The notes: generated from the letters alone by a model not told the origin. 64,000 nucleotides of DNA from Pseudomonadota bacterium (GCA_016201015.1 JACQDQ010000194.1:11149-75148), one strand, 5' to 3'; counted from the first letter of the stretch, positions 43,635 through 60,015 are shown. Program-made: numbers and translations.

Positions 43635-45419
43635 TCACCACCCGACGGCGTAGGAGTTGCGGCGCGGATCGGCGCCGGCGGTCAGCACGCCCGTCGTCTT
43701 GTCGGCGCGAATCATGCACATGGCGCCGGCCTTCCAGATCCAATCCGGCCACCACGCAATGTCATGGCCGAGCGCCGACAGTGCCGCGCCGGTTTCGCGC
43801 GGCAACCGGCCTTCGAGATTGAGGCGGCTAGGGAGGTAGCCGTGCGGCTCGAATGAGTCCGGGAAGCTGTACGTGGCGAAGCGGGGCGCCTCGATCGCGG
43901 CCTGCGGGTCCATGCCGAATACGATCAAATTCAGAAAGGCTTGCAGCATCGCTTGCGACTGCACGTCGCCACCCGGCGTGCCGAACGGCATGACCGTCTT
44001 TCCCTTGGCGATGGCGAGGGCCGGGTTGGGCGTCAGGCGTGGACGCTTGCCGGGCGCAACCGACGAGGCGTGCTTGGGATCGGCCCAGGATTGCGAGCCG
44101 CGCGAGGATGGACACAGTCCCGTGCCGGGAACCACCGGCATATCGTACGAGCTGTCGCTTGGCGTCGCCGAGAAGGCGTTGCCGTGGCGATCGACGACGC
44201 AAACATAAGAGGTGTCGAGCGGCGAGTGCGGCGTGCCGACGGCGGCTGTTGGACGATACGGCGCGGCGCCCGCCACGGTTGTCGCAACCTCGCCGGCCGG
44301 CGGCATTTCGGACCAGGCGCGGTCGCGTCGGACCATCACCCGCCGCGCGGCGGCATACTCGGCCGAGAGGAGCCGGTCTATCGGTACGTCGACGAAGCGC
44401 GGGTCGCCGTAGTAGCGCTCGCGATCCGCAAAGGCAAGTTTCAGCGCCTCGGTGAGGGTGTGGATATATGCGGGCGCGTTGTGGCCGAGGCCTTTGAGAT
44501 CGATGCCATCGAGTATGGACAGTGTCTGCGGCAGCACCGGCCCTTGGCACCACGGTCCGCAGGCGTAAACGTCGACGCCGGCGAAGCGATAACGCACCGG
44601 CGGCTCAATGCCGGAACGGTACTCGGCGAGATCGGCGGCGCTCAGTAAGCCGCCATTTTCTCTGTGGTACTTGATGATCGCCGCCGCGATGTCGCCGCGA
44701 TAGAAGGCCGCGCGAGCGGCTTCAAGGCCCTCCAGGCGACCCTTCGTCGCGGCGGCGCGCTCTTGGTCGGCCATGTAGCGCAACGAGCGCGCGAGATCGC
44801 TTTGTACGAAAATCTCGCCAGGATCGGGCGGGCGGCCGCCGGGAAGATAAACGGCGGCGCTCGACGGCCAGCGGCGATAATCGGCGACATGCGTCTTGAT
44901 GATATCGGACATCAAACGGTGCATCGGGAAGCCGTCGCCGGCGAAGCGGATGGCCGCAGCGGCGACCTCGCCGAAGCTCATCGTGCCATAGCGCGCGAGC
45001 GCTGTGATCCATGCATCCGGCGCCGCCGGCACCACCGTACGCAGAACGCCGGCCGGAATGTGTCCACCGTGCATGCGTTGAAACAGGTCGGGCGTTACGG
45101 CGCGTGGCCAAGTGCCGAGGCCACTGATCGTCACGACCTCATCGCGCGCGGCGAGATAGACGACGATCGGGGCGACGCCGGCGATATTGACCAGGTCGCT
45201 TTGCAGCACGCCCAGCGCAATGCCCGCGGCGACGCCGGCATCGACCGCATTGCCACCCGCCTCGAGGATCGTGAACCCGGCATGGGCCGCGAGGTAGTGG
45301 CCGGCTACGACCATGTGACGGGTGCCCTGCAAGGCCGGTCGGTGTGTTCCGGTCGCGCCTTCGGCCGGCCGGGAATATATGTCGGTGGTCATGCCGCGTT
45401 TCTCCGTGGAATGTGACAT
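43635..45419 (-). CDS. ggt: gamma-glutamyltransferase
   Basis: 594 aa. Autoprocessing/catalytic region TSYVCVVD and the GGDVQ motif. Confidence 0.9.
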   Translation of the reverse strand: MSHSTEKRGMTTDIYSRPAEGATGTHRPALQGTRHMVVAGHYLAAHAGFTILEAGGNAVDAGVAAGIALGVLQSDLVNIAGVAPIVVYLAARDEVVTISGLGTWPRAVTPDLFQRMHGGHIPAGVLRTVVPAAPDAWITALARYGTMSFGEVAAAAIRFAGDGFPMHRLMSDIIKTHVADYRRWPSSAAVYLPGGRPPDPGEIFVQSDLARSLRYMADQERAAATKGRLEGLEAARAAFYRGDIAAAIIKYHRENGGLLSAADLAEYRSGIEPPVRYRFAGVDVYACGPWCQGPVLPQTLSILDGIDLKGLGHNAPAYIHTLTEALKLAFADRERYYGDPRFVDVPIDRLLSAEYAAARRVMVRRDRAWSEMPPAGEVATTVAGAAPYRPTAAVGTPHSPLDTSYVCVVDRHGNAFSATPSDSSYDMPVVPGTGLCPSSRGSQSWADPKHASSVAPGKRPRLTPNPALAIAKGKTVMPFGTPGGDVQSQAMLQAFLNLIVFGMDPQAAIEAPRFATYSFPDSFEPHGYLPSRLNLEGRLPRETGAALSALGHDIAWWPDWIWKAGAMCMIRADKTTGVLTAGADPRRNSYAVGW

Positions 45420-45653
45420 CCGCGTCCGTCAATGCAGGCCGCGCATCAAATCACTTGAAAATTACAATCAAACTGAGCGTAGCACCAGCGGTGCGCTGAC
45501 GGTATCCGCGTCGCGTGAAGCGCAGCCGCCGCTTTTCACGGAAGCTGCGGCCTCGCCCCCGGCGAGAAGAGCAGAACGCGGCGTCGAGGCTGGCAGAGTC
45601 CGGCGCGCCGATCTAGGCTAACGGAAGCCTTACTTAGGATATGGGGAGCAAGA

Positions 45654-46499
45654 GTGATGGCGCGCCATATTGTCTGCCTGACATTCGATTTCGACGCGAT
45701 GTCAGTCTGGATCGCCCGCGGCATGACCTCGCCGACGCCGATCTCCCGCGGCGAGTTCGGCGTCATCGGTGCCGAGCGACTGGTCGCTCTGTTCAAGAAA
45801 TACGGCATTCCGACGACGTGGTTCATTCCCGGACATACGCTCGAGACCTATCCCGATGCCTGCCAGAACGTGGTCGATGCGGGTCACGAGATCGCGCATC
45901 ACGGCTGGACGCACGAGCCGCCCAACACGATGTCCCGCGAAAAGGAGGAAGAGGGACTGGTTCGCGGCAACGAGGCGATCCGCAGGCTCACCGGCCGCGT
46001 CGCGCGTGGCTATCGCTCGCCCTCCTGGGATCTGAGCCCGCATACGATCGAGCTCCTGCTCAAGCACGGCTTCCAATACGACAGCAGCATGATGGGGCAC
46101 GATTATCTGCCCTATCGTGCGCGCCAGGGCGACGTCATCGAGCTGGAGAAGCCGGCCGTGCTCGGCCGCACCACGCGCCTCGTCGAGATGCCGATCAGCT
46201 GGTCGCTCGACGATTATCCCCATTTCGAATTCGTGCGTACGCCGAATTTCGTGTTGCCGGGCCTGACGAACGCCAACGACGTGCTGGAGAACTGGTTCGA
46301 CGACTTCCTCTACATGCAGCAGCACTACGAGTGGGGCGTGATCACTTATACTTGCCACCCATTCGTCATCGGCCGTGGGCACCGCATGATGATGCTCGAG
46401 CGGCTGATCCAAAAGCTGAGCGAGCACGGCGCTGAATTCCAGTGCATGGAGACAGTGGTTCAGGAGTGGGAGCGGCGGATGCCGCAGGCCGCGGAATAG
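45654..46499 (+). CDS. polysaccharide deacetylase (CE4) family protein
   Basis: FDFD...HGWTHE motifs (NodB homology). Confidence 0.8.
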   Translation: MMARHIVCLTFDFDAMSVWIARGMTSPTPISRGEFGVIGAERLVALFKKYGIPTTWFIPGHTLETYPDACQNVVDAGHEIAHHGWTHEPPNTMSREKEEEGLVRGNEAIRRLTGRVARGYRSPSWDLSPHTIELLLKHGFQYDSSMMGHDYLPYRARQGDVIELEKPAVLGRTTRLVEMPISWSLDDYPHFEFVRTPNFVLPGLTNANDVLENWFDDFLYMQQHYEWGVITYTCHPFVIGRGHRMMMLERLIQKLSEHGAEFQCMETVVQEWERRMPQAAE

Positions 46500-46514
46500 C
46501 GACTCGGTCCTGCG

Positions 46515-47351
46515 TCAGTCCGCAGCGGCATTCGCCGCGGGGCGATGCGTGTCGAAATGGCGGCCGAGAAAGCTGCGTAGATCGGCGACGCAGCGGTCGG
46601 CAAGAAAGTCGCAGACGTTGTGCGGAGCATCCTCATAGGACAGGACATCGATCCGAGGTATGCGCTCGCGCATCAGCTCGAAGCTGCGCATTGAGCCGAT
46701 CTTGCCGAGGCCGGGCACGACCAGCAGGGTCGGGCAGCGGATCTGGTGCAGCCGATCGCTCCAGTCCTGCGACGCCATCAACGTGATGAAGCGGACGACA
46801 TACGCTGTGTCGTTCTTCGCCGTCTCGTCCAGGAACCATTCGATCAGCCCAGGATCGACCCCGCCGACGGGGAAGCGGTCGTCGATCGTGTCCGCGAGGA
46901 AGCCGCGCAGCCCCTTGCTTTCGACCTGCGGCAGCCAGGACGCCGCCTGACTATCCTTGAGACCCGGCTGCGAGCCATAAAGCGCGATGCTGCGGGCCCG
47001 CTGCGGCGTGTCCATGGCAATCTGCTGCGCCAGGTAGCCGCCGGCCGAGTTGCCGACTAGATGCGCGCTGGCAAGGCCCATCGTGTCGAGAAACTCGATG
47101 ACATCCTTGACCACGCGCCCGATGGTGAGCGGCAGATTGGGGGGCGGGATCTGCGACTCGCCGTGCCCGCGCAGATCGAGGCGGAACACGCGATAGTGCC
47201 GCGCCAAGCCGGGTACCCAGGAATAGAAGCGTCTGGCGCTGCCCATGGCCGAATGGAGCAGGACGAGTGCATCGGAATTGCGCCACGAATCGGTGAAATC
47301 GTCGGCCAGGTAGTGCAGTTCGACTCCATCGCTGGCCGTGAAGAAAGGCAT
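46515..47351 (-). CDS. alpha/beta-fold hydrolase
   Basis: HGESQ and nucleophile elbow GNSAGG motifs; 278 aa. Confidence 0.8.
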   Translation of the reverse strand: MPFFTASDGVELHYLADDFTDSWRNSDALVLLHSAMGSARRFYSWVPGLARHYRVFRLDLRGHGESQIPPPNLPLTIGRVVKDVIEFLDTMGLASAHLVGNSAGGYLAQQIAMDTPQRARSIALYGSQPGLKDSQAASWLPQVESKGLRGFLADTIDDRFPVGGVDPGLIEWFLDETAKNDTAYVVRFITLMASQDWSDRLHQIRCPTLLVVPGLGKIGSMRSFELMRERIPRIDVLSYEDAPHNVCDFLADRCVADLRSFLGRHFDTHRPAANAAAD

Positions 47352-47699
47352 AGGCCGTCTCGGTATATGTCAATCGGCCGATATTTATAGCCAGGATCGC
47401 GAACGGAGTCCCGCTTGCGGCGGCCGGGCGCACGCCGAACAGCCGATGGGCGGAAGATGGCGACACGGCATGACCACCAATCGCCACGCTTTCGGCAGCG
47501 TGCCGCTCGGTCGCTCGCTCGACACGGCAGGCCAAGTGACAAAATGGTGACGTCGCCCGCAATACTTGAACCCGCAAATTGGACACAAACTGTTGACGGC
47601 GACGATTTAGACTATAGGCTGATGCGAACACCACGGCGAACGACGGTGGGCAGGGGTGTCGGCCCTGCCACAGTTGAGCCACAATGCAACGGGGGATCG
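47352..47699. promoter_or_regulatory. ~350-nt divergent intergenic region, presumed promoter region of the multihaem-cytochrome operon
   Basis: Largest non-coding gap in this area; precedes seven co-directional tightly spaced genes. No specific motif assigned. Confidence 0.3.
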
Positions 47700-48653
47700 A
47701 TGATTTACCGGACATGCGCTGCATATGCGGCGGGCGTCCTGGGACTCGTCCTGGGGCTGAGTCTGAGAATCGACATGGCGGCGGCCGAACCCTTCTACGT
47801 CGGCGCCAAGAAGTGCGAGGAATGCCATCGCCCAGAAAGCGACGTATGGGAGGGCATGAAGCACGCAAAGTCGTTCGGCGAGATCCACCGTAAGCCGGAA
47901 GTTCGCGCGATCATTCAGGCCGCCGGCGGCAACACCAACATGCGGCGCAACGAGGTCTGCATCCAGTGCCACTACACGAATGCCAAGGCCGACGCGGGCG
48001 CCCAACCGCAGGCAGTATCCGGACCATCGTGCGAATCCTGCCACGGACCAGCTTCCGATTGGATCTCGGTCCACAACAATTTCGGCGGGCCGAACGCCAA
48101 GAAGGCCGACGAAACGCCGGCTAACAGGGCCAAGCGCCAGGCGGACGCCTCGAAGGCCGGCATGATCTGGCCGCAGGAGATATACGAGGTCGCGCAAAAC
48201 TGCATGTCCTGTCACGGACTGTCGCGCCCAGGCGTCGATGGCGCAGCGATTGGCAAGATGATCGAGGCGGGGCACCCGGTTAAGGGCGAATTCGAATTCG
48301 TGCTCTATTCGCAGGGCACAGTTCGCCACCGCTTCTATAACTCGACAACGAATTCGGAGATGGCGCCTGCCGAAGCGGCACGCGCCTTCATCGCCGGCCA
48401 TGCGGCGGCGCTGGTCAACGTAACGGCGGCCAAGGGCAAGAGCAGCGATGCCAAATTCACAGCTGCGCAGCAAAAGCTCGAGCAGGCAGCGCGCAAGGCG
48501 CTGGACGCGGTCAAGGGCGCGGCGCCGGAAGCGGCGACCCTGCTCTCCGCGCCCACTGACGACAACGCCCAGAAACTGGTTGCGGCGATCGCCAGCAAGG
48601 ATCTCTCGGCGCAAGTCGGTGGTATGCTGCCGGCGAAGAACACCTATAAGTAG
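47700..48653 (+). CDS. periplasmic tetrahaem c-type cytochrome with an Ala/Lys-rich helical C-terminal tail
   Basis: Four CxxCH motifs (CEECH, CIQCH, CESCH, CMSCH) after a hydrophobic N-terminal leader. Confidence 0.75.
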   Translation: MIYRTCAAYAAGVLGLVLGLSLRIDMAAAEPFYVGAKKCEECHRPESDVWEGMKHAKSFGEIHRKPEVRAIIQAAGGNTNMRRNEVCIQCHYTNAKADAGAQPQAVSGPSCESCHGPASDWISVHNNFGGPNAKKADETPANRAKRQADASKAGMIWPQEIYEVAQNCMSCHGLSRPGVDGAAIGKMIEAGHPVKGEFEFVLYSQGTVRHRFYNSTTNSEMAPAEAARAFIAGHAAALVNVTAAKGKSSDAKFTAAQQKLEQAARKALDAVKGAAPEAATLLSAPTDDNAQKLVAAIASKDLSAQVGGMLPAKNTYK

Positions 48654-48750
48654 GGTGACCGAATCGCCGAAGAGTTTGGATTGAGCGGCGTGTGATCAAT
48701 TTGTTCGGAGGTAGGCCCGCGAGAACAGATGGCGGTGCCGCGGGCAACGG

Positions 48751-50463
48751 GTGCGGCATGGGGAAGGGACGAGGGAACAGGCGATGACCGATGTCGCGAT
48801 GATGGCACGGCCCCAGCGCTGGGACGTGCCGTTCGACCCCGCGATGACCGATGCCGACGTGCGACTCCTGTTGCAGCGGCGAGAGTTCCGCGACATCAAG
48901 CCGGACAACTTTCCGCCGCACATGCCGCTCGAGGGCATCCTCAAGAACGACGCGCGTCTCGTCCACTTTCGGCCGGGCGACATCGTGGTGCGCGAAGGCG
49001 ACTATGGCAACTCCGCCTTCCTCGTCCTCGAGGGCCGTCTGCGCGTGGTGCTGGCGCCGGGGCTGCCGCCCGATCTTCACGGCCGGCAGCACGGCCGCCA
49101 GAAGGGCTTCTTCGAGGCGCTGGCGCAGCTATGGACCAATCGCCGTATCCCGGAGGTGCGGGACATCCGTCGTTACCGCTTCGCCCGCGAGGGACTGCGG
49201 CACGATTACTCGAGCGGCAATGTCCGCGTGTTCATTCAGGACATCCCTGCCGTACTCGACAAGCACCGCACCGCCGGTCTTGAGGATGGCGCGATCTTCG
49301 GCGAGATCGCCGCGCTTGGGCGCGTGCCGCGTACCGCCTCGATCTTCGCCGAGACTGATGCCAGGCTGCTCGAAATTCGCTGGCAGGGCCTTCGGGAACT
49401 TCGCCGCTACGACGAGAATTGGCGACGGCAGATCGACGAACGGTACCGAGCAAACGCACTGCGCACGCATCTTCGGGACACCAAGATCTTCGAGGGCTTG
49501 GACGAGAATGTGCTTGAGGCCATTGCCGAGCGGACCCTGTTCGAAACCTATGGCAGCTTCGACTGGCACCTTTCCTATAAGCAGCTCATGCAGCGCGGCG
49601 AAAATGCGGAAGCGAAGGAGCCGGTTATCGCGCAGCAGGGCGACTATCCCGACGGTGTATTGCTGATTCGCGCAGGCTTCGCGCGGGTCAGCATGAAGCT
49701 GGGTACCGGGAAGCGGACGCTCACCTATCTAGGTGCCGGAGATCACTATGGATTCGACGAACTCTATGCCAATTGGAAATCCGGGGAAACAAAGCCGTTG
49801 CAGACGACGCTGACGGCGGTCGGCTATATCGACATCTTGCGTGTTCCGGCCGAAGTGCTCGAGAAGCATGTCTTTCCCCGCCAGGCGCAACCGCCCAAGG
49901 CGCTCATTTCGCTCGCCGACCGCCCGCTGTCCGACGATGCCTTGATCGACTGGGCCGTCGACAAGCGGTTCATCAACGCCACCAAGGCGATGCTCATCGA
50001 TCTCGATCGCTGCGTGCGCTGCGACGATTGTGTCCGCGCCTGCGCCAGCACCCATGGCGGCAATCCGCGCTTTGTCCGCGCCGGCTCGACGTTCGACCAC
50101 TGGATGGTCACGAACGCCTGCATGCATTGTGCCGACCCGGTCTGCATGATCGGCTGCCCGACCGGCGCCATCCATCGCAGCCTCGAAGGCGGTACGGTCG
50201 TCATCAACGACGACACTTGCATCGGCTGCGGCACCTGTGCCGCGTCGTGCCCCTACGACAACATCCGCATGGTCGAAATCACCGACGTGAGCGGCAAGGA
50301 GCTGGTCGACCCGAAGACGCGGCAGCCCATTCTCAAGGCGACCAAGTGCGATCTGTGCGAGAGCAATCCGGGCGGCCCGGCTTGCGTTCGCGCCTGCCCG
50401 CACGACGCATTGCGGCGTGTCGACTTCCGCGATACCAATCCCTTCCGGTCGCCGAACGCATGA
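48751..50463 (+). CDS. fusion protein: two cNMP-binding (CAP-like) domains plus a four-cluster [4Fe-4S] NrfC/DmsB-type ferredoxin module
   Basis: Beta-roll/FGEIAALG signature appears twice. C-terminus carries CVRCDDCVRAC, CMHCADPVCMIGCP, CIGCGTCAASCP and CDLCESNPGGPACVRACP. No HTH and no Tat signal. Confidence 0.75.
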   Translation: MRHGEGTREQAMTDVAMMARPQRWDVPFDPAMTDADVRLLLQRREFRDIKPDNFPPHMPLEGILKNDARLVHFRPGDIVVREGDYGNSAFLVLEGRLRVVLAPGLPPDLHGRQHGRQKGFFEALAQLWTNRRIPEVRDIRRYRFAREGLRHDYSSGNVRVFIQDIPAVLDKHRTAGLEDGAIFGEIAALGRVPRTASIFAETDARLLEIRWQGLRELRRYDENWRRQIDERYRANALRTHLRDTKIFEGLDENVLEAIAERTLFETYGSFDWHLSYKQLMQRGENAEAKEPVIAQQGDYPDGVLLIRAGFARVSMKLGTGKRTLTYLGAGDHYGFDELYANWKSGETKPLQTTLTAVGYIDILRVPAEVLEKHVFPRQAQPPKALISLADRPLSDDALIDWAVDKRFINATKAMLIDLDRCVRCDDCVRACASTHGGNPRFVRAGSTFDHWMVTNACMHCADPVCMIGCPTGAIHRSLEGGTVVINDDTCIGCGTCAASCPYDNIRMVEITDVSGKELVDPKTRQPILKATKCDLCESNPGGPACVRACPHDALRRVDFRDTNPFRSPNA

Positions 50464-51275
50464 AGGCCCTGGCGCGTGCCCTTGCCGTTCCGGCCGGGAT
50501 CAGCCTCCTCTTCGTTGCGGGGCTGGCCCTGTGGCTGCATCAGCGCTGGCTTCAACTCGGCGACACCGGCCGCATCACCGGCTACATATTGTTCGCCGTG
50601 ATGTTGGGGCTCGGCGTGCTCAATCTGCGCAAGCGCCTGTCAATGGTGCCGTTGGCCCGCGCAGCCGACTGGGTGTCATGGCATGCCGTTGGCGGCGTGC
50701 TGGCCCTCGCGCTATTCTGGCTGCACACCAACACGCTGTGGCCAGCGGGACCGTACGAGCAGTTTCTCGCCTTGCTATTTTATCTGGTGACAATTACCGG
50801 CATCGCCGGATATGCGTTGCAGAAGGTGACTCCGAAGTGGCTGACGCAGACCGGAATCGAGCTCATTTTCGAACGGATTCCGATCGAGATCGTGCGGTTG
50901 CGATTGACCGCTGAGCGTGTCGTCTACGATTGCTGCGAGGCGACGGGGAGCGAGACCCTGGGCCGCTTCTATCTCGAAACGCTCGACTGGTATTTCCGCA
51001 AGCCACGCTTCCTGACCAGCACCCTGGGTGGCGGGCGGCGCGGCCAGCGCTGGGTCCGGCAGCAATGCGACGGTGTCGCGCGCGCACTCCAGGCCAATGA
51101 AATTTCCTATCTCGAGACGCTGCGCCAGCTCGCGGACGCAAAGGCGCTGGCCGACATTCACTATTCCCTGCAAGGGGCAACCAAGCTTTGGCTGCTCGTC
51201 CACGTGCCGCTCGCGGCAGCGGTTCTGGTGGTCGCTCTGTGGCACTTGCTCGTCGTCAGCGTCTACGCCCTATGA
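50460..51275 (+). CDS. polytopic membrane protein (5 predicted TM) with intramembrane His residues, possibly b-type haem binding
   Basis: TM helices with H27, H76, H90, H250, H262; ATGA start-stop overlap with the upstream Fe-S gene. Confidence 0.55.
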   Translation: MKALARALAVPAGISLLFVAGLALWLHQRWLQLGDTGRITGYILFAVMLGLGVLNLRKRLSMVPLARAADWVSWHAVGGVLALALFWLHTNTLWPAGPYEQFLALLFYLVTITGIAGYALQKVTPKWLTQTGIELIFERIPIEIVRLRLTAERVVYDCCEATGSETLGRFYLETLDWYFRKPRFLTSTLGGGRRGQRWVRQQCDGVARALQANEISYLETLRQLADAKALADIHYSLQGATKLWLLVHVPLAAAVLVVALWHLLVVSVYAL

Positions 51276-53191
51276 CCCAGCCCTTCAAGTTCATCCCTGT
51301 CGATACTGGCTACGAGCGGCCGAATTTTCCGTGGCGCTGCGGCGCCGGCGCGCACTGGACGCGTCCGTGCACGCTGGGCCCCTCGATCCACGGCCAATGC
51401 CGCGGTACATCGGAATGCGCTCCGACGCGCAAGGGGGATCGCTGGGAGTGCCGCCGCCCGGCCTCGCTCGGGGGATCATGTCCGGTCGGGCCCGGCACCG
51501 ATGGCAGCTGCTCGCAGATTCATCCCCCCTGCGCGCCGGTGCGCACGATCCGCGGCTGGCGCGGGCACCTCACGGTGCTTGCCATCGTCCTCATGCTCAG
51601 TCTGATTGCAGCACTGCACAGCGAATCCTTTACCCGGGCGAGTGGGGTGAGCTCGATCAATCCTGGTCCGCTCACCAGCCGCCACGCGCAGTTCGTCGGT
51701 GAACAGGGTTGTGCCACCTGCCATGCCGCACATGGCCAGGGGCCAGGCGGCTGGTTGGCAGCGGCATTCGCCCCGCGCGATGCGAGCGGCCGCTGCGTCG
51801 ACTGCCATGCCTTCGGCGGATCGGCTGAAGCGGCCCACAACACGACGTTTGAGAAGCGACAAGACGTGGCGCAGACGTCGTGCATCATGTGCCATACAGA
51901 GCACAAGGGCCAAACGGCCAATCTCGTGCAGATTGCCGATGCCCAGTGTCAGACCTGTCACACCGAGAAATTCGACCACTTCGCCAAGAATCATCCGCAG
52001 TTTGGCCCGCACTATCCGTATCCCGAGCGTGGGGCCATCCAATTCAACCACGTCGCCCATTTCGATAAGCACTTCGCCGACCCGCGGTACAAGCCGAACG
52101 CGCCGACGGGCTGCGTCGGCTGCCATCGCCTCGACGCCGGGGTGAACGTCATGCGCACGACGAAATTCGCCGACATGTGCGCGACATGCCATACCGATCA
52201 GATCACGCGGCGCGAATTCGTCCTGTTCCGCTTGCCTGAATTCAACGAGAGCAAGATTGCCGCCGCAAAGGTCACGGAGGCGTGCGGTCCGTCTCCTGCC
52301 GAGTTGGAGTCGCTCAAGGCGCGGCTGAATGCGCTGACGCGCGGCACGCCGTCGCCGCCGGCGAAGAATGAGCCGTATTCGAGCATCTCTGCCGATCCGC
52401 CCAACGCGGTGCTGGCCTATTTGCTGGGGGTGCCGGCCGACGATCCGGACGCCTACGGCGAGTCGGTCCAATCTCTTGTGCTGGACATGGCCCGTGACGG
52501 TGTTATGCCGTTGGCCGACAAGCTGCCGGCCTCCGCTGCGAGGCCGGCGCTGCTCGCCGGCCTCAACGGCGAATTGGTCCGCCGCGTCGCCTGCGCCTGG
52601 GCGGCCAATCGCGAATACGAGCCGCCGCCGGAAGGCAAGGGAACGACCGGATGGAAGGCGGACGGCCTAACGCTGCGCTTGGTTCCGGCCGGCCATGCCG
52701 ATCCGGTCGTGCGCAGTTGGTTGGATTTTGTTGTCTCCGGACCGCCGGCAAAGAGCAAGGAAGATGCTGCCCGACTCGACGCGATGCGCAAGGAGATGCT
52801 GTCGACCGCGGAAGGGCCCGGAGCGTGCGTCAAATGCCATGCCCTGACGGCGGCTTCGGCCGACAAGTTGCAAATAGATTGGTCGAAGCACTACGCGCGC
52901 AGCGGGCCGCAGACGCGCTTCCTGCATGCCCCGCACGTCAACTTGCTGGGGCCGGATGCGACGTGCACCGTCTGCCATAAATTCGATTCGACCGCCGACT
53001 ACGCGGCCGCCTTCAAGACCCTGGACCCACACCAATACGTCAGCAACTTCAAGGCAATGGTGACAACGACCTGCAGCGGGTGCCACGCCGCGGGCAAAGT
53101 CCGGGCTGATTGCCAAGCCTGCCATATCTATCATCGCGACCACACGTTCAAAAAGCGCATGGTGAACATCGACTCGGCAGCGGCCAACTGA
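51272..53191 (+). CDS. decahaem c-type cytochrome with an N-terminal Cys-rich segment and one TM helix
   Basis: Ten CxxCH motifs. The first ~100 aa hold 8 Cys but no CxxCH, followed by LTVLAIVLMLSLIAAL. ATGA overlap with the upstream gene. Confidence 0.8.
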   Translation: MTQPFKFIPVDTGYERPNFPWRCGAGAHWTRPCTLGPSIHGQCRGTSECAPTRKGDRWECRRPASLGGSCPVGPGTDGSCSQIHPPCAPVRTIRGWRGHLTVLAIVLMLSLIAALHSESFTRASGVSSINPGPLTSRHAQFVGEQGCATCHAAHGQGPGGWLAAAFAPRDASGRCVDCHAFGGSAEAAHNTTFEKRQDVAQTSCIMCHTEHKGQTANLVQIADAQCQTCHTEKFDHFAKNHPQFGPHYPYPERGAIQFNHVAHFDKHFADPRYKPNAPTGCVGCHRLDAGVNVMRTTKFADMCATCHTDQITRREFVLFRLPEFNESKIAAAKVTEACGPSPAELESLKARLNALTRGTPSPPAKNEPYSSISADPPNAVLAYLLGVPADDPDAYGESVQSLVLDMARDGVMPLADKLPASAARPALLAGLNGELVRRVACAWAANREYEPPPEGKGTTGWKADGLTLRLVPAGHADPVVRSWLDFVVSGPPAKSKEDAARLDAMRKEMLSTAEGPGACVKCHALTAASADKLQIDWSKHYARSGPQTRFLHAPHVNLLGPDATCTVCHKFDSTADYAAAFKTLDPHQYVSNFKAMVTTTCSGCHAAGKVRADCQACHIYHRDHTFKKRMVNIDSAAAN

Positions 53192-53546
53192 CCGGCGGCG
53201 CGGCCGGCCGGCACGCCTCGGTTTGCGCTGCATCAAAGGCTGAGAGGAGTTCGCAGTATGGGCCGGCAACCGGTTCAAAACATTTATGAATTGCTGCGCG
53301 TGTAGTATGGTGTATAAAGGTTAATCAGTGTCCGGGTGGCGCCGCGGGGTTTCGCCATGTTAAGGTTTTGGTAACGGGTACTGGTGTCCGATGAAGCAGC
53401 GAGCACAAGCAGTGGTAAGGCTCCGCTCGAACCAGGAACGAGACCGGGACGGACGGCCAAAATCCCGGCGCTATCGCAGGCGGTCTGCCAGGGAGGTTGA
53501 CGCTTCCGCGCCATTGCGGCGCGGCTGGATTGGGGAGACGCCCTCC

Positions 53547-55331
53547 ATGTCTCGTCGCATTCGGCTCGCGACCACCGCGATCGCGGCCTCGTTCCGCGTC
53601 GCTTCATCAATGCTTTTGGGACTGTCGATCAGCGCCGCGGCCACCGCGGGGAGCGCATGGGCACAGACCGCGGCAGCAGGGGTAGACCCGCATGCTGCGT
53701 TGCTCGCTGAGACTTCGTATCCTAGCGCGTCGCAATGCGCGGTGTGTCACCGCCAGATCTACAACGAATGGTCTTCGTCGAATCACGCCTATGCGTCGAT
53801 CTCGCCGATGTTCCACAAGTTCGAGCAGGCGATCAACGAGCTCGCCTCGGGGACGGTCGGTACGTTCTGCGTACGTTGTCACCAGGGCGCCGGCACGCAA
53901 CGCGGCGAGCCGCGCGAGAAGCCGCTGTGGGAGCGCTCGGCTGCCGCGCGCGAAGGCGTCACCTGTATCTCCTGTCATCGCGTGCAGGAGGAATACGGGC
54001 GTGCCAACGGTGAGCGGCTGATCGAGCCCGGCGATGTCTCTGCGCCTGTCTTTAACGCGCACGAATCGACCGGGCTCGGCAAGGTGATCGCCGAGAATGA
54101 TTTCTACAAGGTGGCGACGACGCCGGCCGAGCGCGGCAGCCGCATCCATCTCAGAGCGCTCAAGAATGAGCAGATCGGCAAGTCGGAATTCTGTCTGTCC
54201 TGCCATCAGGTTGCGGTCCATCCAGGCATCAAGCTCGAGGTCGTGTGGGAGCAGTACCGCGCGGCGCCGGCGGCGCAGCAGGGCGTGGTCTGCCAGGAAT
54301 GCCACATGGGCAAGGTTCCCGGTAAGCCGATGGGCTATGCCGTCGGCCCGACTGCGGTGGTCAACGGGCAGGCCGTCGAACCGAACCGCAAGCACTCCAA
54401 CCACTCATTCTACGGGCCGGGTTATCCAATCGCCCATCCGGGCATCTTTCCGCACAATCCCAAGGCCGAGAACCATTCGATCCAAGAATGGCTACGCTAT
54501 GACTATCGCGCCGGCTGGGGCAATCCCGAGTTTGAGGACAAGGTCGAGAAAAATCAGATCAAGGCGGAATTCCCACAGGAATGGGCCGACCGCGTCGACC
54601 GCGAGGAAGCCTTCGAAGTCATCCAGGAGAATCTGCAGCGGCTCGAGGAGAAGCGGAAGCTGCGTGTCGCCGTCATGGAGAATGGCTCCAAGATCGACGG
54701 ACCGTTTTTCGGCTCCACGCCCCGGCTTGGTCAATCGCTGAGTTTCACCTATCGCGTAGCGAACACGAGCACCGGCCACAACTTTCCGTCCGGCTCGCTC
54801 GGCGCTCAACCGGAAATCTGGCTGAACGTCGCGCTGACCGATCCGGCCGGCAAGACGGTGTGGGAATCCGGCTATACCGACAGCAACGGCGACATGGCCG
54901 ACCTGCACTCGCACGATGTCGCCGCCAGCCGCATCAAGCACGACGATCAGCTGTTCAACCTGCAGACCAAGTTCCTGACCACCAACGTCAAGGGCACGGA
55001 TCGCGAGATGTATCTGCCGATCAATTTCGACGTCGATCAACTGCCCTTCATACGGCCTGCAACTATACCGACGACCGTGCTCAACCATCCGCCTTTCATC
55101 CGCATGGAAGGGCGAAGCCTGCCGCCGCTGAGTTCGCGCAACGCCAATTACAGCGTGACCGGCTCGGCGCTCTCGGCGCCTGGCAAGTACCGGCTGTCGG
55201 TGCGTCTGCGGAGCCGTGCCGAGCCGATCTACTTCATGCGCTTCGTCGGGGCCACTGTCGAAATGGAGCAGGCGATGAATGAGTGGCTCATCGACATTCA
55301 TCCCTACGCCGTCGAGTTCGAGGTGAAATGA
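53547..55331 (+). CDS. pentahaem c-type cytochrome with a ~330 aa haem-free C-terminal domain
   Basis: Signal peptide plus CAVCH, CVRCH, CISCH, CLSCH, CQECH. The ORF track starts at 53391, but MSRRIRLATTAIAAS followed by a signal sequence is the likely start. Confidence 0.7.
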   Translation: MSRRIRLATTAIAASFRVASSMLLGLSISAAATAGSAWAQTAAAGVDPHAALLAETSYPSASQCAVCHRQIYNEWSSSNHAYASISPMFHKFEQAINELASGTVGTFCVRCHQGAGTQRGEPREKPLWERSAAAREGVTCISCHRVQEEYGRANGERLIEPGDVSAPVFNAHESTGLGKVIAENDFYKVATTPAERGSRIHLRALKNEQIGKSEFCLSCHQVAVHPGIKLEVVWEQYRAAPAAQQGVVCQECHMGKVPGKPMGYAVGPTAVVNGQAVEPNRKHSNHSFYGPGYPIAHPGIFPHNPKAENHSIQEWLRYDYRAGWGNPEFEDKVEKNQIKAEFPQEWADRVDREEAFEVIQENLQRLEEKRKLRVAVMENGSKIDGPFFGSTPRLGQSLSFTYRVANTSTGHNFPSGSLGAQPEIWLNVALTDPAGKTVWESGYTDSNGDMADLHSHDVAASRIKHDDQLFNLQTKFLTTNVKGTDREMYLPINFDVDQLPFIRPATIPTTVLNHPPFIRMEGRSLPPLSSRNANYSVTGSALSAPGKYRLSVRLRSRAEPIYFMRFVGATVEMEQAMNEWLIDIHPYAVEFEVK

Positions 55332-56890
55332 TTCGCAGGGGAGAAGCGGGGGGGAGCGAGAGTCGCCCCGACGCAACAGGGCGCGGAGGGCGCCATCGCG
55401 CAGGCCGATGGTTGCTGGCATGCGTCGGCGCGATCGCGCTGGCAGCCGCTGCACATGCGGCCGATCCGCCGGAGATGTCGCCCGACGTCAAGTCGATTCC
55501 TTACGATCCGAAGGTATTCAAGCAGGACCCGACCTACGACGACAAGCCGTACGATGCGCAGCGGCAGCAGGATATCTATGGTGGGAAGAAGGCGGTCGAT
55601 ACGCCGCGGCCGGTGATCGAAATCGGTCGCCCGCTCTACACCGAAGGTCCGTTTCGTCCGAGCTCGGTACTGCTTGGCGAAAAGAATCTGATCGCGCCCA
55701 GCCTGTGGCTTTACGGCGACTGGCGGACGGCGGTGGCCTACAACGACAACGGCAAGAAGGAGGATGCGCAGATCGCCACCCGCCTGAATCTTGATGTCGA
55801 TCTGAAGCTTACCGCGACCGAACGCGTCCACGCCTTCTTCCGTCCGCTTGATCAGGGCGGCCAGTTCACGCATTACTCATTTGCCGGCGACGATCGCAGT
55901 CAGGGCAAGTTCATCAAGGACGGCAATCTCGAGAACTTATTCTTCGAAGGCGATCTCGGCGCGATGGCGCAGGGACTGACCGGGGAATACAACGGCGTCG
56001 ATCTGCCCGTCGCCGCCGGCCTCATGCCGATGCTGTTCCAGAACGGCGTGTGGGTCGACGACGCGTTTACCGGATTTGCCTTCGCGATTCCGGCGCGAAA
56101 CAGCAAATTCCTCGACATCTCCAACATGGACATCACCTACTTCATGGGCCTCGACAAGGTGTCCACCGCGGCGATCAGGGATGACAAGAAACAGATCGCC
56201 GACCACAACGTGCAGCTCTATGGCGTCGCCGCGTTTGTCGAAACGCTCGAAGGTTACTTCGAAGTCGGCTACGGCTATACGCGTGGTGAGGGGATATTCG
56301 ACGAACTCAGCTATCACAACGCGACGCTCGCGTTTACCCGGCGTTACGGCGGCTTCTTGTCGAACAGCGTGCGGGGCATCTGGAATTTCGGCCAGAACCG
56401 CCGCAACAACCAGCAGCAAACCGCTGACGGCTTCATCTTGTTGGTCGAAAACTCGCTGATCACCTCGAAGCCGCTGACGCTGGTGCCATATTTCAATTTC
56501 TTTGCCGGATTCGATCGGCCGCAGTCGTTGGCGCGCGATCCGGGTGCCGGCGGCGTGCTCAAGAATACCGGCATCAACTTCGAGACCGATGGCCTGACCG
56601 GCTTTCCGAAGCTCGACGATACCGGGCAGAACACCTATGGCGGCGCGGTCGGTCTGCAGTATTTGTTCAATCTCGACCAGCAGATCGTGGTCGAGGCGGC
56701 GGGGCTCAAGGTGCGTGAAGGCAACTTCGAGGCCGGACGTCCGGCGCGCGGCGATGAATTCGCGATTGGCGTGCGCTACCAGATTCCGGTGACAAATCGT
56801 TGGATCTTCCGCGCCGACGCGATCAAGGCGTGGCGCGAGAATGACGCGGATTTCGCCGGGATCCGCGCGGAGGTTCGGCGCAAGTTCTGA
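55328..56890 (+). CDS. putative outer-membrane beta-barrel (porin-like) protein
   Basis: Signal peptide WLLACVGAIALAAAAHA, alternating amphipathic beta-strand pattern, Tyr/Gly-rich, C-terminal ...VRRKF; ATGA overlap with the pentahaem gene. Confidence 0.55.
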   Translation: MIRRGEAGGSESRPDATGRGGRHRAGRWLLACVGAIALAAAAHAADPPEMSPDVKSIPYDPKVFKQDPTYDDKPYDAQRQQDIYGGKKAVDTPRPVIEIGRPLYTEGPFRPSSVLLGEKNLIAPSLWLYGDWRTAVAYNDNGKKEDAQIATRLNLDVDLKLTATERVHAFFRPLDQGGQFTHYSFAGDDRSQGKFIKDGNLENLFFEGDLGAMAQGLTGEYNGVDLPVAAGLMPMLFQNGVWVDDAFTGFAFAIPARNSKFLDISNMDITYFMGLDKVSTAAIRDDKKQIADHNVQLYGVAAFVETLEGYFEVGYGYTRGEGIFDELSYHNATLAFTRRYGGFLSNSVRGIWNFGQNRRNNQQQTADGFILLVENSLITSKPLTLVPYFNFFAGFDRPQSLARDPGAGGVLKNTGINFETDGLTGFPKLDDTGQNTYGGAVGLQYLFNLDQQIVVEAAGLKVREGNFEAGRPARGDEFAIGVRYQIPVTNRWIFRADAIKAWRENDADFAGIRAEVRRKF

Positions 56891-56946
56891 TCGGCGCCGG
56901 CTGGTCCGATCGGGCGTATCAGATCGAAGAGGAACGGGGCGGAGCG

Positions 56947-58218
56947 GTGGATATCCTTCTGACGGTTGCTGGGGCCGCGGTCATGGTGGCGATGGCGGCC
57001 TATGTCGTGAATCTTAGCCTCATGCAGTGGCGGGTCGCCGCGTTGGCGCGCGGCCGCGTCGAGGATGAGCGGACTCTGCTCAAGGAGCGGATCGCGCAGC
57101 TCGCCTTGAAGCGGCAGTTCGAAGAGCAGCGCAACGAATTGTCGTGGAGCGGGTTCCGCAAGTTCGAAGTCGTGCGTAAGGTGCTCGAGGGCGGCGGCGT
57201 CGCCTCGATCTATATGCGCCCGCACGATGGCAAAAAGCTGCCGCCGTTCCGTCCGGGCCAGTACTTGACGTTCCGGCTTAATGTTCCCGGTCAGCGTCAA
57301 CCGGTCATCCGCTGCTATTCGCTGTCCGACAACCCGAATCCCGAGCATTTCCGCATCTCGGTGAAGAAAGTGCTGCCGCCACGCGATAAGCCGGATGTGC
57401 CGTCCGGCCTGTCGTCGACCTACTTCAACGACGTGGTGAAGGAAGGCGATATCATCGATGTGAAGGCACCGGGTGGCGGCTTCTACCTCGACACCACCAA
57501 GCCACGCCCGATCGTTCTGATCGGCGGCGGCATTGGGCTGACGCCGGTCTTTAGCATGCTCAAGGCGGTCTGCGAATCGTCGAGCAAGCAGGAGGCTTGG
57601 TTCTTCTATGGCGTGCGCAATCGCGTCGAGCATATTTGGCGCGATGAATTCTCGCGGATTGCGCGTGAAAACGAGAATGTCCGTTTGCATGTCTGCTATA
57701 GCGACCCGACGCCCGAGTGCCACGAGGGCACCGACTACCAGCATGCGGCGCGAGTGGGTGTCGATCTCCTGAAGCGGCTGCTGCCGTCGAACAACTACGA
57801 GTTCTATATCTGCGGCCCGCCGCCGATGATGGATTCGATCACCTCAGGACTCGCCGAATGGGGCGTGCCCGAGGACCGCGTCCATTTCGAGGCATTCGGA
57901 CCGGCCACGGTCAAGAAGGTCGCGAAAGCGGCGGAGGCGCCCGTGGCGGCACCCGGCGCGCCGACATTGCAGGTCCTATTCGCCAAGTCGGGGCGGACGG
58001 TTCGCTGGGACGGCCGCGCGGCATCGCTGCTCGAGCTTGCGGAGGCGAACGGCATCACGATCGATTTCGGCTGCCGTGCCGGCAATTGCGGCACATGCCT
58101 GACCGCGATCAAGAACGGCGACGTGAGCTACGTCAACCCGCCGGGTTCGATGCCGGAAAAGGGCTCGTGCCTGACCTGCGTGTCCGTACCCAAATCCGAT
58201 CTGACATTGGACGCCTGA
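56947..58218 (+). CDS. membrane-anchored ferredoxin-NAD(P) reductase family oxidoreductase with a C-terminal [2Fe-2S] ferredoxin domain
   Basis: N-terminal TM helix, FAD motif RCYSLS, NAD motif GGGIGLTP, and a C-terminal CRAGNCGTC...C plant-type ferredoxin motif; GTG start 57 nt after the beta-barrel gene. Confidence 0.8.
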   Translation: MDILLTVAGAAVMVAMAAYVVNLSLMQWRVAALARGRVEDERTLLKERIAQLALKRQFEEQRNELSWSGFRKFEVVRKVLEGGGVASIYMRPHDGKKLPPFRPGQYLTFRLNVPGQRQPVIRCYSLSDNPNPEHFRISVKKVLPPRDKPDVPSGLSSTYFNDVVKEGDIIDVKAPGGGFYLDTTKPRPIVLIGGGIGLTPVFSMLKAVCESSSKQEAWFFYGVRNRVEHIWRDEFSRIARENENVRLHVCYSDPTPECHEGTDYQHAARVGVDLLKRLLPSNNYEFYICGPPPMMDSITSGLAEWGVPEDRVHFEAFGPATVKKVAKAAEAPVAAPGAPTLQVLFAKSGRTVRWDGRAASLLELAEANGITIDFGCRAGNCGTCLTAIKNGDVSYVNPPGSMPEKGSCLTCVSVPKSDLTLDA

Positions 58219-58227: not shown

Positions 58228-59175
58228 TTAACGAGCCGGGACAAGTTCGGCGGCGGCGGCGACAAGGGCGAGGCCGCGCGCAGCGGCATGCGCCTCGCCA
58301 TATTGCGTGGCGAGCCCGCGGGTGGCCAGTGCCGTCACGTAGAGCTTGCCGAGGGACTGCGTGCCGACCAGGGTGATCGTAGCCGGCTTCGTGCTGCCGG
58401 CCCTTGCCGCCAGGCAGGCAAGCGCCTCGTCGATTTCCGTCCCGATGACGAGACCGCTCAGATAGGAGCGTAGCGCTGTCGCCGGTACCTGCTCGAACAG
58501 ACCAAGCGTGCGTGTACTGAACAGCTTCTTCAGCAATCCGCCATGACCCGCTGAGGCTGCGTAGTCGATGCCGCGGCGAAATGCCGCCACGTCCTCCGAT
58601 TCCCCCGCCATCAGGCGACCCAGGATACTGTGTGCCGCGAGCACCGCGAAAACCTCGCCGGTCATGAACGTTGCGAACCATACGATTCGGCCATTCTCGA
58701 CGAGCACCCACTTGCTATGGGTTCCCGGGAGAACGAAGGTGGCCTGCGCGGTCGCGCTTGAGCCGCCGAGGGCGCCGACGATCTGCGTTTCTTCACCTCG
58801 CATCACGTCGGGCACGTCGTCATCGTTGCGCATGACACCCGGAACAAACCAGAGGCGGCAGCCGTTCCGGGCCGTATGCGGCACCAGGGCGTGAGCGAGG
58901 TCCTCGAGTCCGGCGGGGCAGGATACGTAAGGCGCCTCCACCCATCCCTGCCGGCTGCCGATCATGCCTGCAGCGACGGCCGGCAATGCGCCGTGCTGTG
59001 CGATCCAGGGGCCTGCAGCCTCGTTGAAGACCCGATCGAAGTCGCAGTCGGGGACGTTCAGGATACCGGATGGCCGCTCGATCCGATCGGCGATACGGCC
59101 CGACCGCGCGATGAGGTAGGCGCGAAACGAAGTCGTCCCCCAGTCTAGGGCAATCAAGACCGGTGGGTCAGACAC
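58228..59175 (-). CDS. dgoK: 2-dehydro-3-deoxygalactonokinase
   Basis: 315 aa; LIALDWGTTSFRAY N-terminus typical of DgoK. Confidence 0.8.
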   Translation of the reverse strand: MSDPPVLIALDWGTTSFRAYLIARSGRIADRIERPSGILNVPDCDFDRVFNEAAGPWIAQHGALPAVAAGMIGSRQGWVEAPYVSCPAGLEDLAHALVPHTARNGCRLWFVPGVMRNDDDVPDVMRGEETQIVGALGGSSATAQATFVLPGTHSKWVLVENGRIVWFATFMTGEVFAVLAAHSILGRLMAGESEDVAAFRRGIDYAASAGHGGLLKKLFSTRTLGLFEQVPATALRSYLSGLVIGTEIDEALACLAARAGSTKPATITLVGTQSLGKLYVTALATRGLATQYGEAHAAARGLALVAAAAELVPAR

Positions 59176-59329
59176 GCGGTGGATGGGTCACTCCAGGCAT
59201 GCTGGGGGCCGATCTAGGCGCCGTCAAAATATTTACTCGACAACAAACACCACCGCTAGCGCCCACTCAGGCGCCAACGGCGGCGTCGACACGAACCTAG
59301 CCCGAACTTTCCACCGGAAGGGGTGGCGG

Positions 59330-59599
59330 CTAGAGGCTGGCGCGAATTCCCTTGGAGGCCTTGAAGCGAACAGACTTGCTGGCGCCAATCTTGATCACTT
59401 CGCCGGTCTTCGGATTGCGTCCCTTGCGCGCGCCGCGCCTGGACACTTTGAACGTCCCAAAGCCGACGATGCCGAGACTGCCGTCCTTTTTCAGAGTCTT
59501 GACGATGCCGCCGAACAGAGCGTCAACCGTCTTCTTGGCTTTGACCGATGTGCAGCCCGCGTTCTTCTTGATGATGTCAACGAGTTCTGCCTTGCTCAT
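59330..59599 (-). CDS. hup: HU family DNA-binding protein
   Basis: MSKAELVDIIKK...GFGTFKVSRRGARKGRNPKTGE (HU arm); 89 aa. The ORF-track ORF extends upstream to 59701. Confidence 0.9.
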   Translation of the reverse strand: MSKAELVDIIKKNAGCTSVKAKKTVDALFGGIVKTLKKDGSLGIVGFGTFKVSRRGARKGRNPKTGEVIKIGASKSVRFKASKGIRASL

Positions 59600-59947: not shown

Positions 59948-60015
59948 GGCCGCCAGAAGCTAGAATGGCAGCCTTTATAGGACAGTACGGCCCAGGATAC
60001 AATTCAGCATAAATA

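Follow-up and report, generated by a model that had tools for sequence, protein, structure and literature searches.

What is the purpose of eight cysteines placed ahead of the only transmembrane helix of a decahaem cytochrome, and can such a protein carry electrons across the inner membrane by itself? The question is raised by the gene at 51272-53191 in a 64,000-nucleotide stretch of DNA from a Pseudomonadota bacterium (GCA_016201015.1 JACQDQ010000194.1:11149-75148; the whole stretch is called the window below), for which the initial annotation proposed a metal or iron-sulfur (Fe-S) centre in the cysteine segment and, hence, a transmembrane wire made of one polypeptide. Judged by its sequence, the gene is ptdG of the cluster named ptdABCDEFG by Elbon, Stewart & Glass, the function of which "remains completely unknown" (bioRxiv 10.1101/2023.11.21.568154). 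The eight-cysteine domain of PtdG is new, in that it is real, conserved and previously undescribed, and PtdG itself belongs to a named, uncharacterised system. The best-supported route for electrons is a multi-subunit chain that leads from PtdC through PtdE, PtdF, PtdG and PtdD/PtdA to PtdB.

Layout and Membrane Topology of PtdG

ptdG, 51272-53191, plus strand: bitopic decahaem c-type cytochrome, 639 amino acids and a stop codon
PtdG residues 1-17, 51272-51322, plus strand: conserved N-terminal linear motif F-x-H-D-x-S-x-Y-E-R-P
PtdG residues 18-52, 51323-51427, plus strand: Cys4 module 1 (C23, C33, C43, C49), C-x9-C-x2-GP-x3-G-x-C-x5-C-x-P
PtdG residues 54-91, 51431-51544, plus strand: Cys4 module 2 (C60, C70, C80, C87), with the last cysteine about 10 residues from the membrane
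PtdG residues 97-117, 51560-51622, plus strand: single transmembrane helix, predicted signal anchor, N-terminus in and C-terminus out
PtdG residues 118-639, 51623-53188, plus strand: predicted periplasmic domain with six CxxCH motifs, a haem-free insert of about 200 amino acids (about 310-515) and four further CxxCH motifs

Translation of 51272-53191 reproduces the order of parts given in the initial annotation, namely eight cysteines, one transmembrane helix and ten CxxCH motifs. Exactly eight cysteines precede the helix (residues 23, 33, 43, 49, 60, 70, 80 and 87), in the contexts that had been quoted for them (WRCGAG, RPC, GQC, SEC, WEC, GSC, GSC and PPC), and none of the eight is part of a CxxCH motif; the ten motifs are found at residues 147, 175, 204, 226, 281, 303, 519, 565, 601 and 614. 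The sole hydrophobic stretch lies at about 95-121 (best 19-mer 98-116, Kyte-Doolittle 2.06) and is separated from the second cysteine module by about 10 residues of basic character. At 51272, the ATG and the stop codon of ptdF overlap by 4 nt (ATGA), and because the same overlap is kept in 61 of 71 related loci, the start codon is real and the cysteine segment is translated.

The side of the membrane on which the cysteines lie can be deduced from the haems. The covalent attachment of c-type haem takes place in the periplasm and PtdG has only one helix; therefore, the N-terminal domain must be on the cytoplasmic side. The cytoplasmic location that the initial annotation had put forward as a condition is thus borne out by the distribution of charge, by the lack of a signal-peptide-like stretch and by the position of the haem domain outside: the 15 residues before the helix contain on average 4.5 lysines and arginines, against 0.9 in the 15 residues after it, 99% of the 190 homologues obey the positive-inside rule, and the N-terminal domain, with a net charge of about +7.7, has no hydrophobic stretch resembling a signal peptide. 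No conserved signal-peptidase motif follows the helix in the alignment of homologues. Export of the N-terminal domain by the twin-arginine translocation (Tat) pathway was also considered and rejected, since homologues do not preserve 'PRR-x-LR', the sequence ahead of the helix, as a twin-arginine motif (R90 in 68% and R91 in 53% of sequences) and the attachment of c-type haem requires Sec export. In the paper that names the cluster, PtdG is labelled "Periplasmic" by PSORTb, and its cysteines and N-terminal domain go unmentioned (bioRxiv 10.1101/2023.11.21.568154); whichever metal the modules hold, the protein should no longer be annotated as "periplasmic".

Ahead of the modules, the linear motif of residues 1-17 may be a docking peptide. 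Its invariant residues are Y14, R16 and P17, while S12 and E15 reach a conservation of at least 92%. An AlphaFold2 (AF2) model leaves the S-x-Y-E-R-P stretch disordered (predicted local distance difference test, pLDDT, below 50 for residues 4-16).

In the periplasmic domain, all ten CxxCH motifs are invariant among 48 homologues, and matches to the Pfam families Paired_CXXCH_1, Cytochrome_C7 and MtrC/MtrF domain II/IV were obtained. The haem-free insert (residues about 310-515, window about 52200-52815) parts haem 6 from haem 7 and has conserved motifs of its own (ACAWAAN-EYE, GGW and GHADPV). It also holds two conserved non-haem cysteines, C338 and C441, which are on the periplasmic side and could form a disulfide there. 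In some homologues the insert is far longer, giving proteins of 750-1130 amino acids in which the haem count is still ten.

Conservation and Duplication of the Eight-Cysteine Domain

A word-indexed search yielded 144 homologues of PtdG, one of them 97% identical and the others at most 49% identical, all of which are unnamed or generically named in the database. Conservation of the cysteines was counted over the 103 homologues with a complete N-terminus (31-49% identity, plus the one at 97%). C23, C33, C43 and C87 are conserved in 100% of these, and C49, C60, C70 and C80 in 92%; the other 8% are clean gaps in variants with a single module, and no substitutions occur. Conservation of this degree is well beyond chance. 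An alignment of 36 sequences of the domain (A3) shows 22 invariant positions: Y14, R16, P17, the eight cysteines, G36, P37, G41, P51, R62, G68, G73, P74, G78, P89 and R97. Module 1 accordingly contains the invariant residues C23, C33, G36, P37, G41, C43, C49 and P51, and module 2 contains C60, R62, G68, C70, G73, P74, G78, C80, C87 and P89. The pattern of cysteines is kept in 79 genomic loci, which belong to Alpha-, Beta- and Gammaproteobacteria, Nitrospinaceae (Nitrospinota), Verrucomicrobiota, Omnitrophota and Methylomirabilota, and also in a more divergent subfamily among database fragments. Homologues with both modules span more than six phyla, and all eight cysteines are invariant in them. 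These loci were obtained by a scan with a 10-sequence alignment, a first scan with a 48-sequence alignment having found no stretch that was conserved enough. The eight cysteines are thus retained across homologues and do not behave as a cleaved or non-conserved leader, which was the outcome that would have spoken against the initial annotation.

The eight cysteines are arranged as two tandem copies of a module of about 37 amino acids, C-x9-C-x2-G-P-x3-G-x-C-x5/6-C-x-P. Comparison of the profiles of residues 17-53 and 54-91 gave an hhalign probability of 96.5% (E 7.8e-10), and by this sequence criterion the two modules are homologous and derive from a tandem duplication. The length of one module is missing in six loci of unrelated lineages and in several database proteins. 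Such variants have either exactly four cysteines (L003/L046, L048, L051, P0028, P0031, P0084 and P0087) or four cysteines and one non-aligned extra (L057 and L065), and no matching change in the length or the cysteine count of PtdE or PtdF was found in a test for co-variation. Because the one-module variants keep four cysteines, the module is probably an autonomous unit, which argues for one centre per module. A distant paralogue of 696 amino acids and 29% identity, encoded in a metagenome-assembled genome (MAG) of Rhodomicrobiaceae (L080, 9875-11965), keeps the transmembrane helix and the haem domain and has lost the cysteine modules, in the place of which a vestigial 'SYRCGK' is found; in the 10 kb upstream of it, ptdE and ptdF are lacking and a two-component system is encoded. 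It is the only relative with that much upstream sequence in which the two genes are missing.

Relationship of the Domain to Known Metal-Binding Folds

Searches for relatives of the domain outside the PtdG family were negative. Two N-terminal domain sequences compared with Pfam at E<=10 gave no match, Fer4 included. Against the PDB, a single-sequence search found nothing significant, the only hit being ephrin at E of about 0.8, and the best hit of a profile search, the Zn2Cys6 domain of LEU3, was not significant either (E 0.058); comparison of folds revealed no zinc ribbon and no other match. The AF2 model of the domain, with a mean pLDDT of 68.8 and values of 75-87 at residues 41-80, consists mostly of loops with one hairpin.

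Known cysteine motifs were likewise looked for in the domain. The Fer4 signature CxxCxxCxxxC(P) is absent, the spacings being 9, 9 and 5-6; the CxxC or CxC knuckles and the recognisable fold of rubredoxins and zinc ribbons are lacking; and the CCG motif of HdrD/DsrK, CXnCCGXmCXXC, does not occur, nor is there a Pfam match. A twin-Cx9C (CHCH) disulfide fold was rejected on account of the richness in glycine and proline, the absence of helices from the AF2 model and the cytoplasmic location. Haem-regulatory CP motifs were rejected because no Cys-Pro dipeptide is conserved.

When the profile of the domain was run with HMMER exhaustively against 1.84 billion representatives, 618 proteins were matched at E<=1e-3, 535 of them at E<=1e-10. 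Among the best 150 of the 618 matches, the domain is at the extreme N-terminus in every case; those of at least 550 amino acids have the single transmembrane helix next, at about 95-114, with one exception, and ten CxxCH motifs are present in 92 of these 104 full-length proteins. As far as can be seen from these 150 sequences, the domain would be exclusive to the PtdG cytochrome family.

Probable Route of Electrons across the Inner Membrane

ptdF, 50460-51275, plus strand: five-helix transmembrane protein with two H-x13-H pairs and a helical cytoplasmic insertion of about 110 amino acids

The helix of PtdG is poorly suited to carry electrons. No histidine, cysteine or methionine is conserved in it among homologues (H99 and H116 of the window protein are not conserved), and its character is simply hydrophobic, residues 104 and 110 being small; in its surroundings, R97 alone is invariant. 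Without a cofactor, electrons cannot cross a bilayer of about 30 Å. PtdF, in contrast, has four invariant histidines in an alignment of 39 sequences (A4), which form the pairs H75-x13-H89 on the third transmembrane helix (TM3) and H248-x13-H262 on the fifth (TM5). The AF2 model of PtdF (pLDDT 91.7) places them in the helix of residues 68-90 and within the helix of residues 212-270, respectively, and both TM3 and TM5 run from the cytoplasm to the periplasm by the positive-inside rule, an RKR loop lying ahead of TM3. Two H-x13-H pairs on two parallel helices are the arrangement found in cytochrome b of the bc1 complex and in NOX/FRD proteins. The conserved pairs imply that PtdF may bind two b-haems stacked across the membrane, and with the helices in this orientation H75 and H248 would hold the inner haem and H89 and H262 the outer haem.

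Because the helix of PtdG is without a ligand and the histidine pairs of PtdF supply what it lacks, the notion of a transmembrane wire made of a single polypeptide has to be abandoned in favour of a multi-subunit complex in which the membrane is crossed via PtdF. Beyond the four haem ligands, no histidine is conserved in the 39 PtdF sequences, and no cysteine is; consequently, the Cys4 sites of PtdG must be self-contained.

No Pfam match was obtained for PtdF, to Ferric_reduct (PF01794) or any other family, and a fold search with it gave non-specific matches to helical bundles only, some dihaem b proteins being among them. The cytoplasmic insertion between TM4 and TM5, which is about 110 amino acids long and all-helical, has invariant residues (E138, P141 and P182) and no conserved cofactor ligands.

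PtdE, the Probable Cytoplasmic Iron-Sulfur Partner

ptdE, 48751-50463, plus strand: cytoplasmic protein in which cyclic-nucleotide-binding domains precede four ferredoxin-type cysteine motifs

The cytoplasmic Fe-S protein invoked in the initial annotation is encoded in the same operon as PtdG and is PtdE, although its gene is two genes upstream rather than adjacent. PtdE has neither a signal peptide nor a transmembrane helix. It matches the cyclic nucleoside monophosphate (cNMP)-binding family cNMP_binding (1.9e-23), Fer4_7 and Fer4_11 in Pfam, and DmsB, HydN, DsrO, HybA and NrfC in NCBIfam. It contains exactly 16 cysteines in four ferredoxin motifs (421-431, 457-469, 490-500 and 533-549), and the count is 16 in most related loci, with a range of 14-18. 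These motifs imply a protein with four predicted [4Fe-4S] clusters, of the DmsB/NrfC/HybA type, in contrast to the two clusters with which PtdE has been credited (bioRxiv 10.1101/2023.11.21.568154).

In one of its cNMP-binding domains, PtdE keeps a canonical-looking phosphate-binding cassette, FGEIAALGRVPRTAS. The sequence of PtdE suggests that the Ptd complex may be gated by cAMP or cGMP.

Organization of the Ptd Cluster

ptdD, 47415-48653, plus strand: predicted periplasmic tetrahaem cytochrome of the c554-like type, with four CxxCH motifs (Pfam Cytochrome_C554, 5.7e-14)
ptdA, 53391-55331, plus strand: pentahaem cytochrome with five CxxCH motifs (Pfam Cytochrome_C554); probable true start at 53547 (MSRRIRLATTAIAAS)
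ptdB, 55283-56890, plus strand: outer-membrane porin-like protein of about 500 amino acids with the signal-peptide-like sequence WLLACVGAIALAAAAHA; probable start at 55328
ptdC, 56947-58218, plus strand: FNR/NqrF-like oxidoreductase for flavin adenine dinucleotide (FAD) and NAD(P)H, with an N-terminal transmembrane helix and a C-terminal plant-type [2Fe-2S] domain

The cluster consists of seven genes on the same strand, at 47.4-58.2 kb, in the order D-E-F-G-A-B-C. All six partner genes of ptdG are in the window (47415-58218); the same synteny is seen in about 75 loci, and the haem counts of 5, 4 and 10 agree with the published description. In that description, the parts are the pentahaem PtdA, the porin PtdB, the FAD/NAD(P) oxidoreductase PtdC, the tetrahaem PtdD, the cNMP/4Fe-4S protein PtdE, the ferric-reductase-like membrane protein PtdF and the "periplasmic deca-heme" PtdG (bioRxiv 10.1101/2023.11.21.568154). 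One of the MAGs in the paper is the source of locus L002. One homologue of PtdG (P0116; 35% identity, 98% coverage) is from GCA_013002025.1, with the contig prefix JABDKW, which is the MAG 'Gammaproteobacteria SS bin 59' of Table S7 of that paper; the contig number differs from that in the table, and the match is one at the level of the MAG. A literature search gave this one ptd paper, and neither a follow-up nor other later work on Ptd was found.

The genes ptdE, ptdF and ptdG are contiguous in 75 of 82 loci, the exceptions being six truncations at contig ends and one divergent paralogue. ptdA and ptdB form a syntenic pair, which in some genomes is absent or relocated together (for example, L003, L011, L028 and L075). 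ATGA overlaps of 4 nt join ptdE to ptdF (50460-50463), ptdF to ptdG (51272-51275) and, probably, ptdA to ptdB (55328-55331), which suggests two translationally coupled sub-modules, E-F-G for the inner membrane and A-B for the outer membrane. ptdD is syntenic in most loci, and in truth it probably starts at 47700, where the signal-peptide-like stretch MIYRTCAAYAAGVLGLVLGL begins.

PtdC matches NAD_binding_1 (1.7e-19), Fer2 (2e-11) and FAD_binding_6 in Pfam, and the reductase part of flavohaemoprotein and NqrF in NCBIfam. It was called 'Cytoplasmic' by PSORTb (Elbon et al., bioRxiv 2023.11.21.568154). Its N-terminal hydrophobic helix is encoded at 56947-57030, and from its sequence PtdC is probably tethered to the membrane, as NqrF is. 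The product of ptdB has no Pfam or NCBIfam match and was called a porin in the published work (Elbon et al., bioRxiv 2023.11.21.568154). In PtdA, the likely signal peptide (53547-53600) starts with MSRRIRLATTAIAAS, which is like a Tat motif and may be a coincidence. Such a motif is odd for a c-type cytochrome, for which Sec is normally used.

The flanking genes are unrelated housekeeping genes. Upstream (38515-47351) lie genes for a sarcosine oxidase alpha-like protein, a DAO oxidoreductase, gamma-glutamyltranspeptidase, a polysaccharide deacetylase and an alpha/beta hydrolase, and downstream (58228-63381) those for 2-keto-3-deoxygalactonokinase and a peptide ABC transporter. Other genomes have different flanks, which is consistent with movement of the ptd cluster as a unit. 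PtdF of the window is 100% identical to a protein from a 'Proteobacteria bacterium' MAG (locus tag HY246_10265). The cluster is widespread: the domain of PtdG is present in 618 cluster representatives, and ptd genes occur in many marine and freshwater phyla, Nitrospinaceae included.

Possible Role of the Cysteine Modules

The conserved sets of four cysteines lie in the reducing cytoplasm, which favours metal over disulfides, and the eight-cysteine domain of PtdG, a putative metal-binding domain by its sequence, probably does bind metal. Iron-sulfur is slightly favoured over zinc as the metal, because there is no CxxC or CxC knuckle (no two cysteines are closer than 5 residues) and because each module ends in C-x-P and is a duplicated short Cys4 unit, as in clostridial ferredoxins. 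We tentatively prefer, by a slight inclination, a reading of the sequences in which each module of PtdG would hold one metal centre serving as a redox Fe-S relay to the inner b-haem. The conservation of the modules, the linkage of ptdE, ptdF and ptdG, and the loss of the modules in the Rhodomicrobiaceae paralogue, where ptdE and ptdF are lacking, are counted for such a relay. What we infer is that the domain binds metal, which metal this is, that the domain touches PtdE and PtdF, and which way the electrons flow.

With such a relay, electrons from NAD(P)H would pass through FAD to the [2Fe-2S] centre within PtdC, from there to the four [4Fe-4S] clusters of PtdE, and then to the centre or centres in the N-terminal domain of PtdG, which would both anchor PtdE and act as the final relay on the cytoplasmic side. 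Situated at the cytoplasmic mouth of PtdF, this domain would deliver the electrons to the inner b-haem (H75/H248), from which they could proceed to the outer b-haem (H89/H262) and the ten c-haems of PtdG. The c-haems would in turn be oxidized by PtdD/PtdA, leading to the porin PtdB.

Several points weigh against a redox relay. The N-terminal domain has no similarity in sequence or fold to known Fe-S, rubredoxin or zinc domains, and its AF2 model is of no more than moderate confidence (pLDDT 68.8). From proteins with four clusters, such as those of the DmsB/NarH/FdnH type, electrons normally go straight to the membrane subunit, which makes a further relay unnecessary. Several lineages do without one of the modules, and this loss is at least as compatible with a structural role. 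Being small and basic, with few hydrophobic residues, the modules would leave a cluster exposed in aerobic hosts, and the listed hosts are aerobic (bioRxiv 10.1101/2023.11.21.568154). Finally, the literature search found no experiment on any Ptd protein. That both modules are redox Fe-S sites, with a new fold, an obligatory hand-over from PtdE to PtdF and a chain that leads from NAD(P)H to the cell surface independently of quinone, is accordingly a proposal that we regard as doubtful.

The modules might instead form a structural or assembly domain, a credible explanation that comes second in probability to the relay. In this case they would bind zinc (or Fe-S for folding), the YERP peptide would help to clamp PtdE and/or the ferredoxin domain of PtdC onto the PtdF-PtdG core, and electrons would pass directly from the last cluster of PtdE to the inner b-haem, leaving the cysteine centres unused. 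In cytoplasmic proteins, a Cys4 module is usually a zinc site, and structural zinc subunits of this kind occur in respiratory complexes. PtdE is already a predicted four-cluster wire whose homologous counterparts dock directly on membrane partners, and without a transmembrane helix of its own it needs an anchor; the invariant, disordered YERP peptide resembles a docking motif; and one module can be dispensed with in six loci. The very weak best profile match in the PDB, at E 0.058, is also to a Zn2Cys6 domain, although this E value for LEU3 is not significant. Zinc knuckles of the CxxC/CxC kind are missing, however, spacings of 9, 9 and 5-6 are atypical of structural zinc, and neither a zinc ribbon nor any other fold was matched.

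A regulatory or sensor domain is improbable. It would be a switch, based on thiols, a cluster or a metal, by which the flow of electrons is gated, or a membrane-tethered signalling or DNA-binding module, like ToxR or a zinc anti-sigma factor (ZAS), that reports the redox state of the periplasmic haems. An N-terminal cytoplasmic domain followed by one transmembrane helix and a periplasmic sensing domain is indeed the layout of zinc anti-sigma and ToxR-like proteins, the N-terminal domain is strongly basic (about +7.7), and the cNMP-binding domains of PtdE are another regulatory element of the complex. Nevertheless, the cluster has no conserved gene for a sigma factor or a regulator, the domain has neither the ZAS motif H-x3-C-x2-C nor a helix-turn-helix, and ten haems and the strict coupling to PtdE and PtdF point to bulk electron transfer.

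The wire of the initial annotation, in which PtdG alone would pass electrons from its cytoplasmic centre along its own helix to the first c-haem, draws on the presence of cofactor-type motifs on both sides of one transmembrane helix in a single polypeptide; it is very improbable, given a helix devoid of conserved haem or metal ligands, a bilayer gap far above the physiological tunnelling limit of about 14 Å, and a dihaem-b-type PtdF that is always encoded immediately upstream and translationally coupled. Least probable of all is that the cysteine segment is a cleaved or non-functional leader or results from a start codon called too far upstream: the published PSORTb call and some database gene calls that start downstream (for example, P0101) would fit, but the 22 positions invariant across phyla, the conserved overlap with ptdF, the full domain on the contig that encodes P0101 (L016) and the lack of a conserved signal-peptidase motif after the helix speak against it, and the conservation by itself refutes it.

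The Cys4x2 domain of PtdG, the H-x13-H pairs of PtdF and the four clusters of PtdE together give a concrete wiring diagram for what has been a "porin-cytochrome complex", in which electrons donated by NAD(P)H in the cytoplasm would reach the outer membrane with the quinone pool bypassed. If the modules are Fe-S sites, they would represent a new cluster-binding fold and a new way of linking the redox chains of the cytoplasm and the periplasm; PtdG would, in that event, be the first known c-type cytochrome with Fe-S inside and c-haems outside on one polypeptide, and an NAD(P)H-to-cell-surface chain would exist in widespread marine bacteria. If they are zinc sites, a new assembly domain for respiratory complexes would have been found.

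Comparison with Known Electron-Transfer Systems

Like PtdG, the NapC/NirT/CymA/NrfH proteins are bitopic, with a transmembrane anchor whose N-terminus is inside, and their c-haems, in the periplasm, supply partners there or in the outer membrane. They differ in having 4-5 haems and few cytoplasmic residues and in taking their electrons from quinol, whereas PtdG has ten haems and a cysteine-rich cytoplasmic domain of 95 amino acids, and it does not match the NapC/NirT family PF03264. Its score with the decahaem MtrA/DmsE family TIGR03508, 29.4 bits, is below the curated cut-off of 192.2.

The four-cluster proteins FdnH, NarH, DmsB and PsrB are of the same kind as PtdE. FdnH has its own single transmembrane helix beside a dihaem b subunit, whereas PtdE has none, and the helix, together with a juxtamembrane cysteine domain, comes from PtdG. 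The domain itself is reminiscent of the clostridial 2x[4Fe-4S] ferredoxins, in which eight cysteines likewise arise by duplication of a short module, a proline is near the last cysteine of each half, and the protein is small with few hydrophobic residues. The motifs differ, being CxxCxxCxxxCP in the ferredoxins and C-x9-C-x9-C-x5/6-C-x-P in PtdG, and the one-module variants of PtdG indicate that its modules are independent and not cross-ligating, unlike those of clostridial ferredoxins.

The Hmc, Tmc and DsrMKJOP complexes of sulfate reducers combine, as Ptd does, a periplasmic multihaem cytochrome c, a membrane b-cytochrome and a cytoplasmic cysteine-rich Fe-S protein, and PtdG has weak NCBIfam matches to HmcA and DsrJ that are far under the cut-offs (41 versus 400 bits). 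In those complexes a subunit of its own, HdrD-like and bearing CCG motifs, forms the cysteine-rich part, whereas in Ptd an unrelated module is fused to the c-cytochrome. In NOX, FRE, STEAP and MsrQ proteins and the dihaem cytochromes b561, NAD(P)H and flavin on the inside supply two bis-His b-haems on TM3 and TM5. The H-x13-H pairs of PtdF on TM3 and TM5 and the FNR-type reductase PtdC resemble the NOX/FRE arrangement; in Ptd, however, these are separate subunits, the [2Fe-2S] centre of PtdC, the 4x[4Fe-4S] of PtdE and the cysteine domain of PtdG are interposed, and the chain goes on through 19 c-haems to a porin. By analogy, Ptd would appear to work most like the Hmc/Tmc/Dsr complexes and the NOX/FRD systems.

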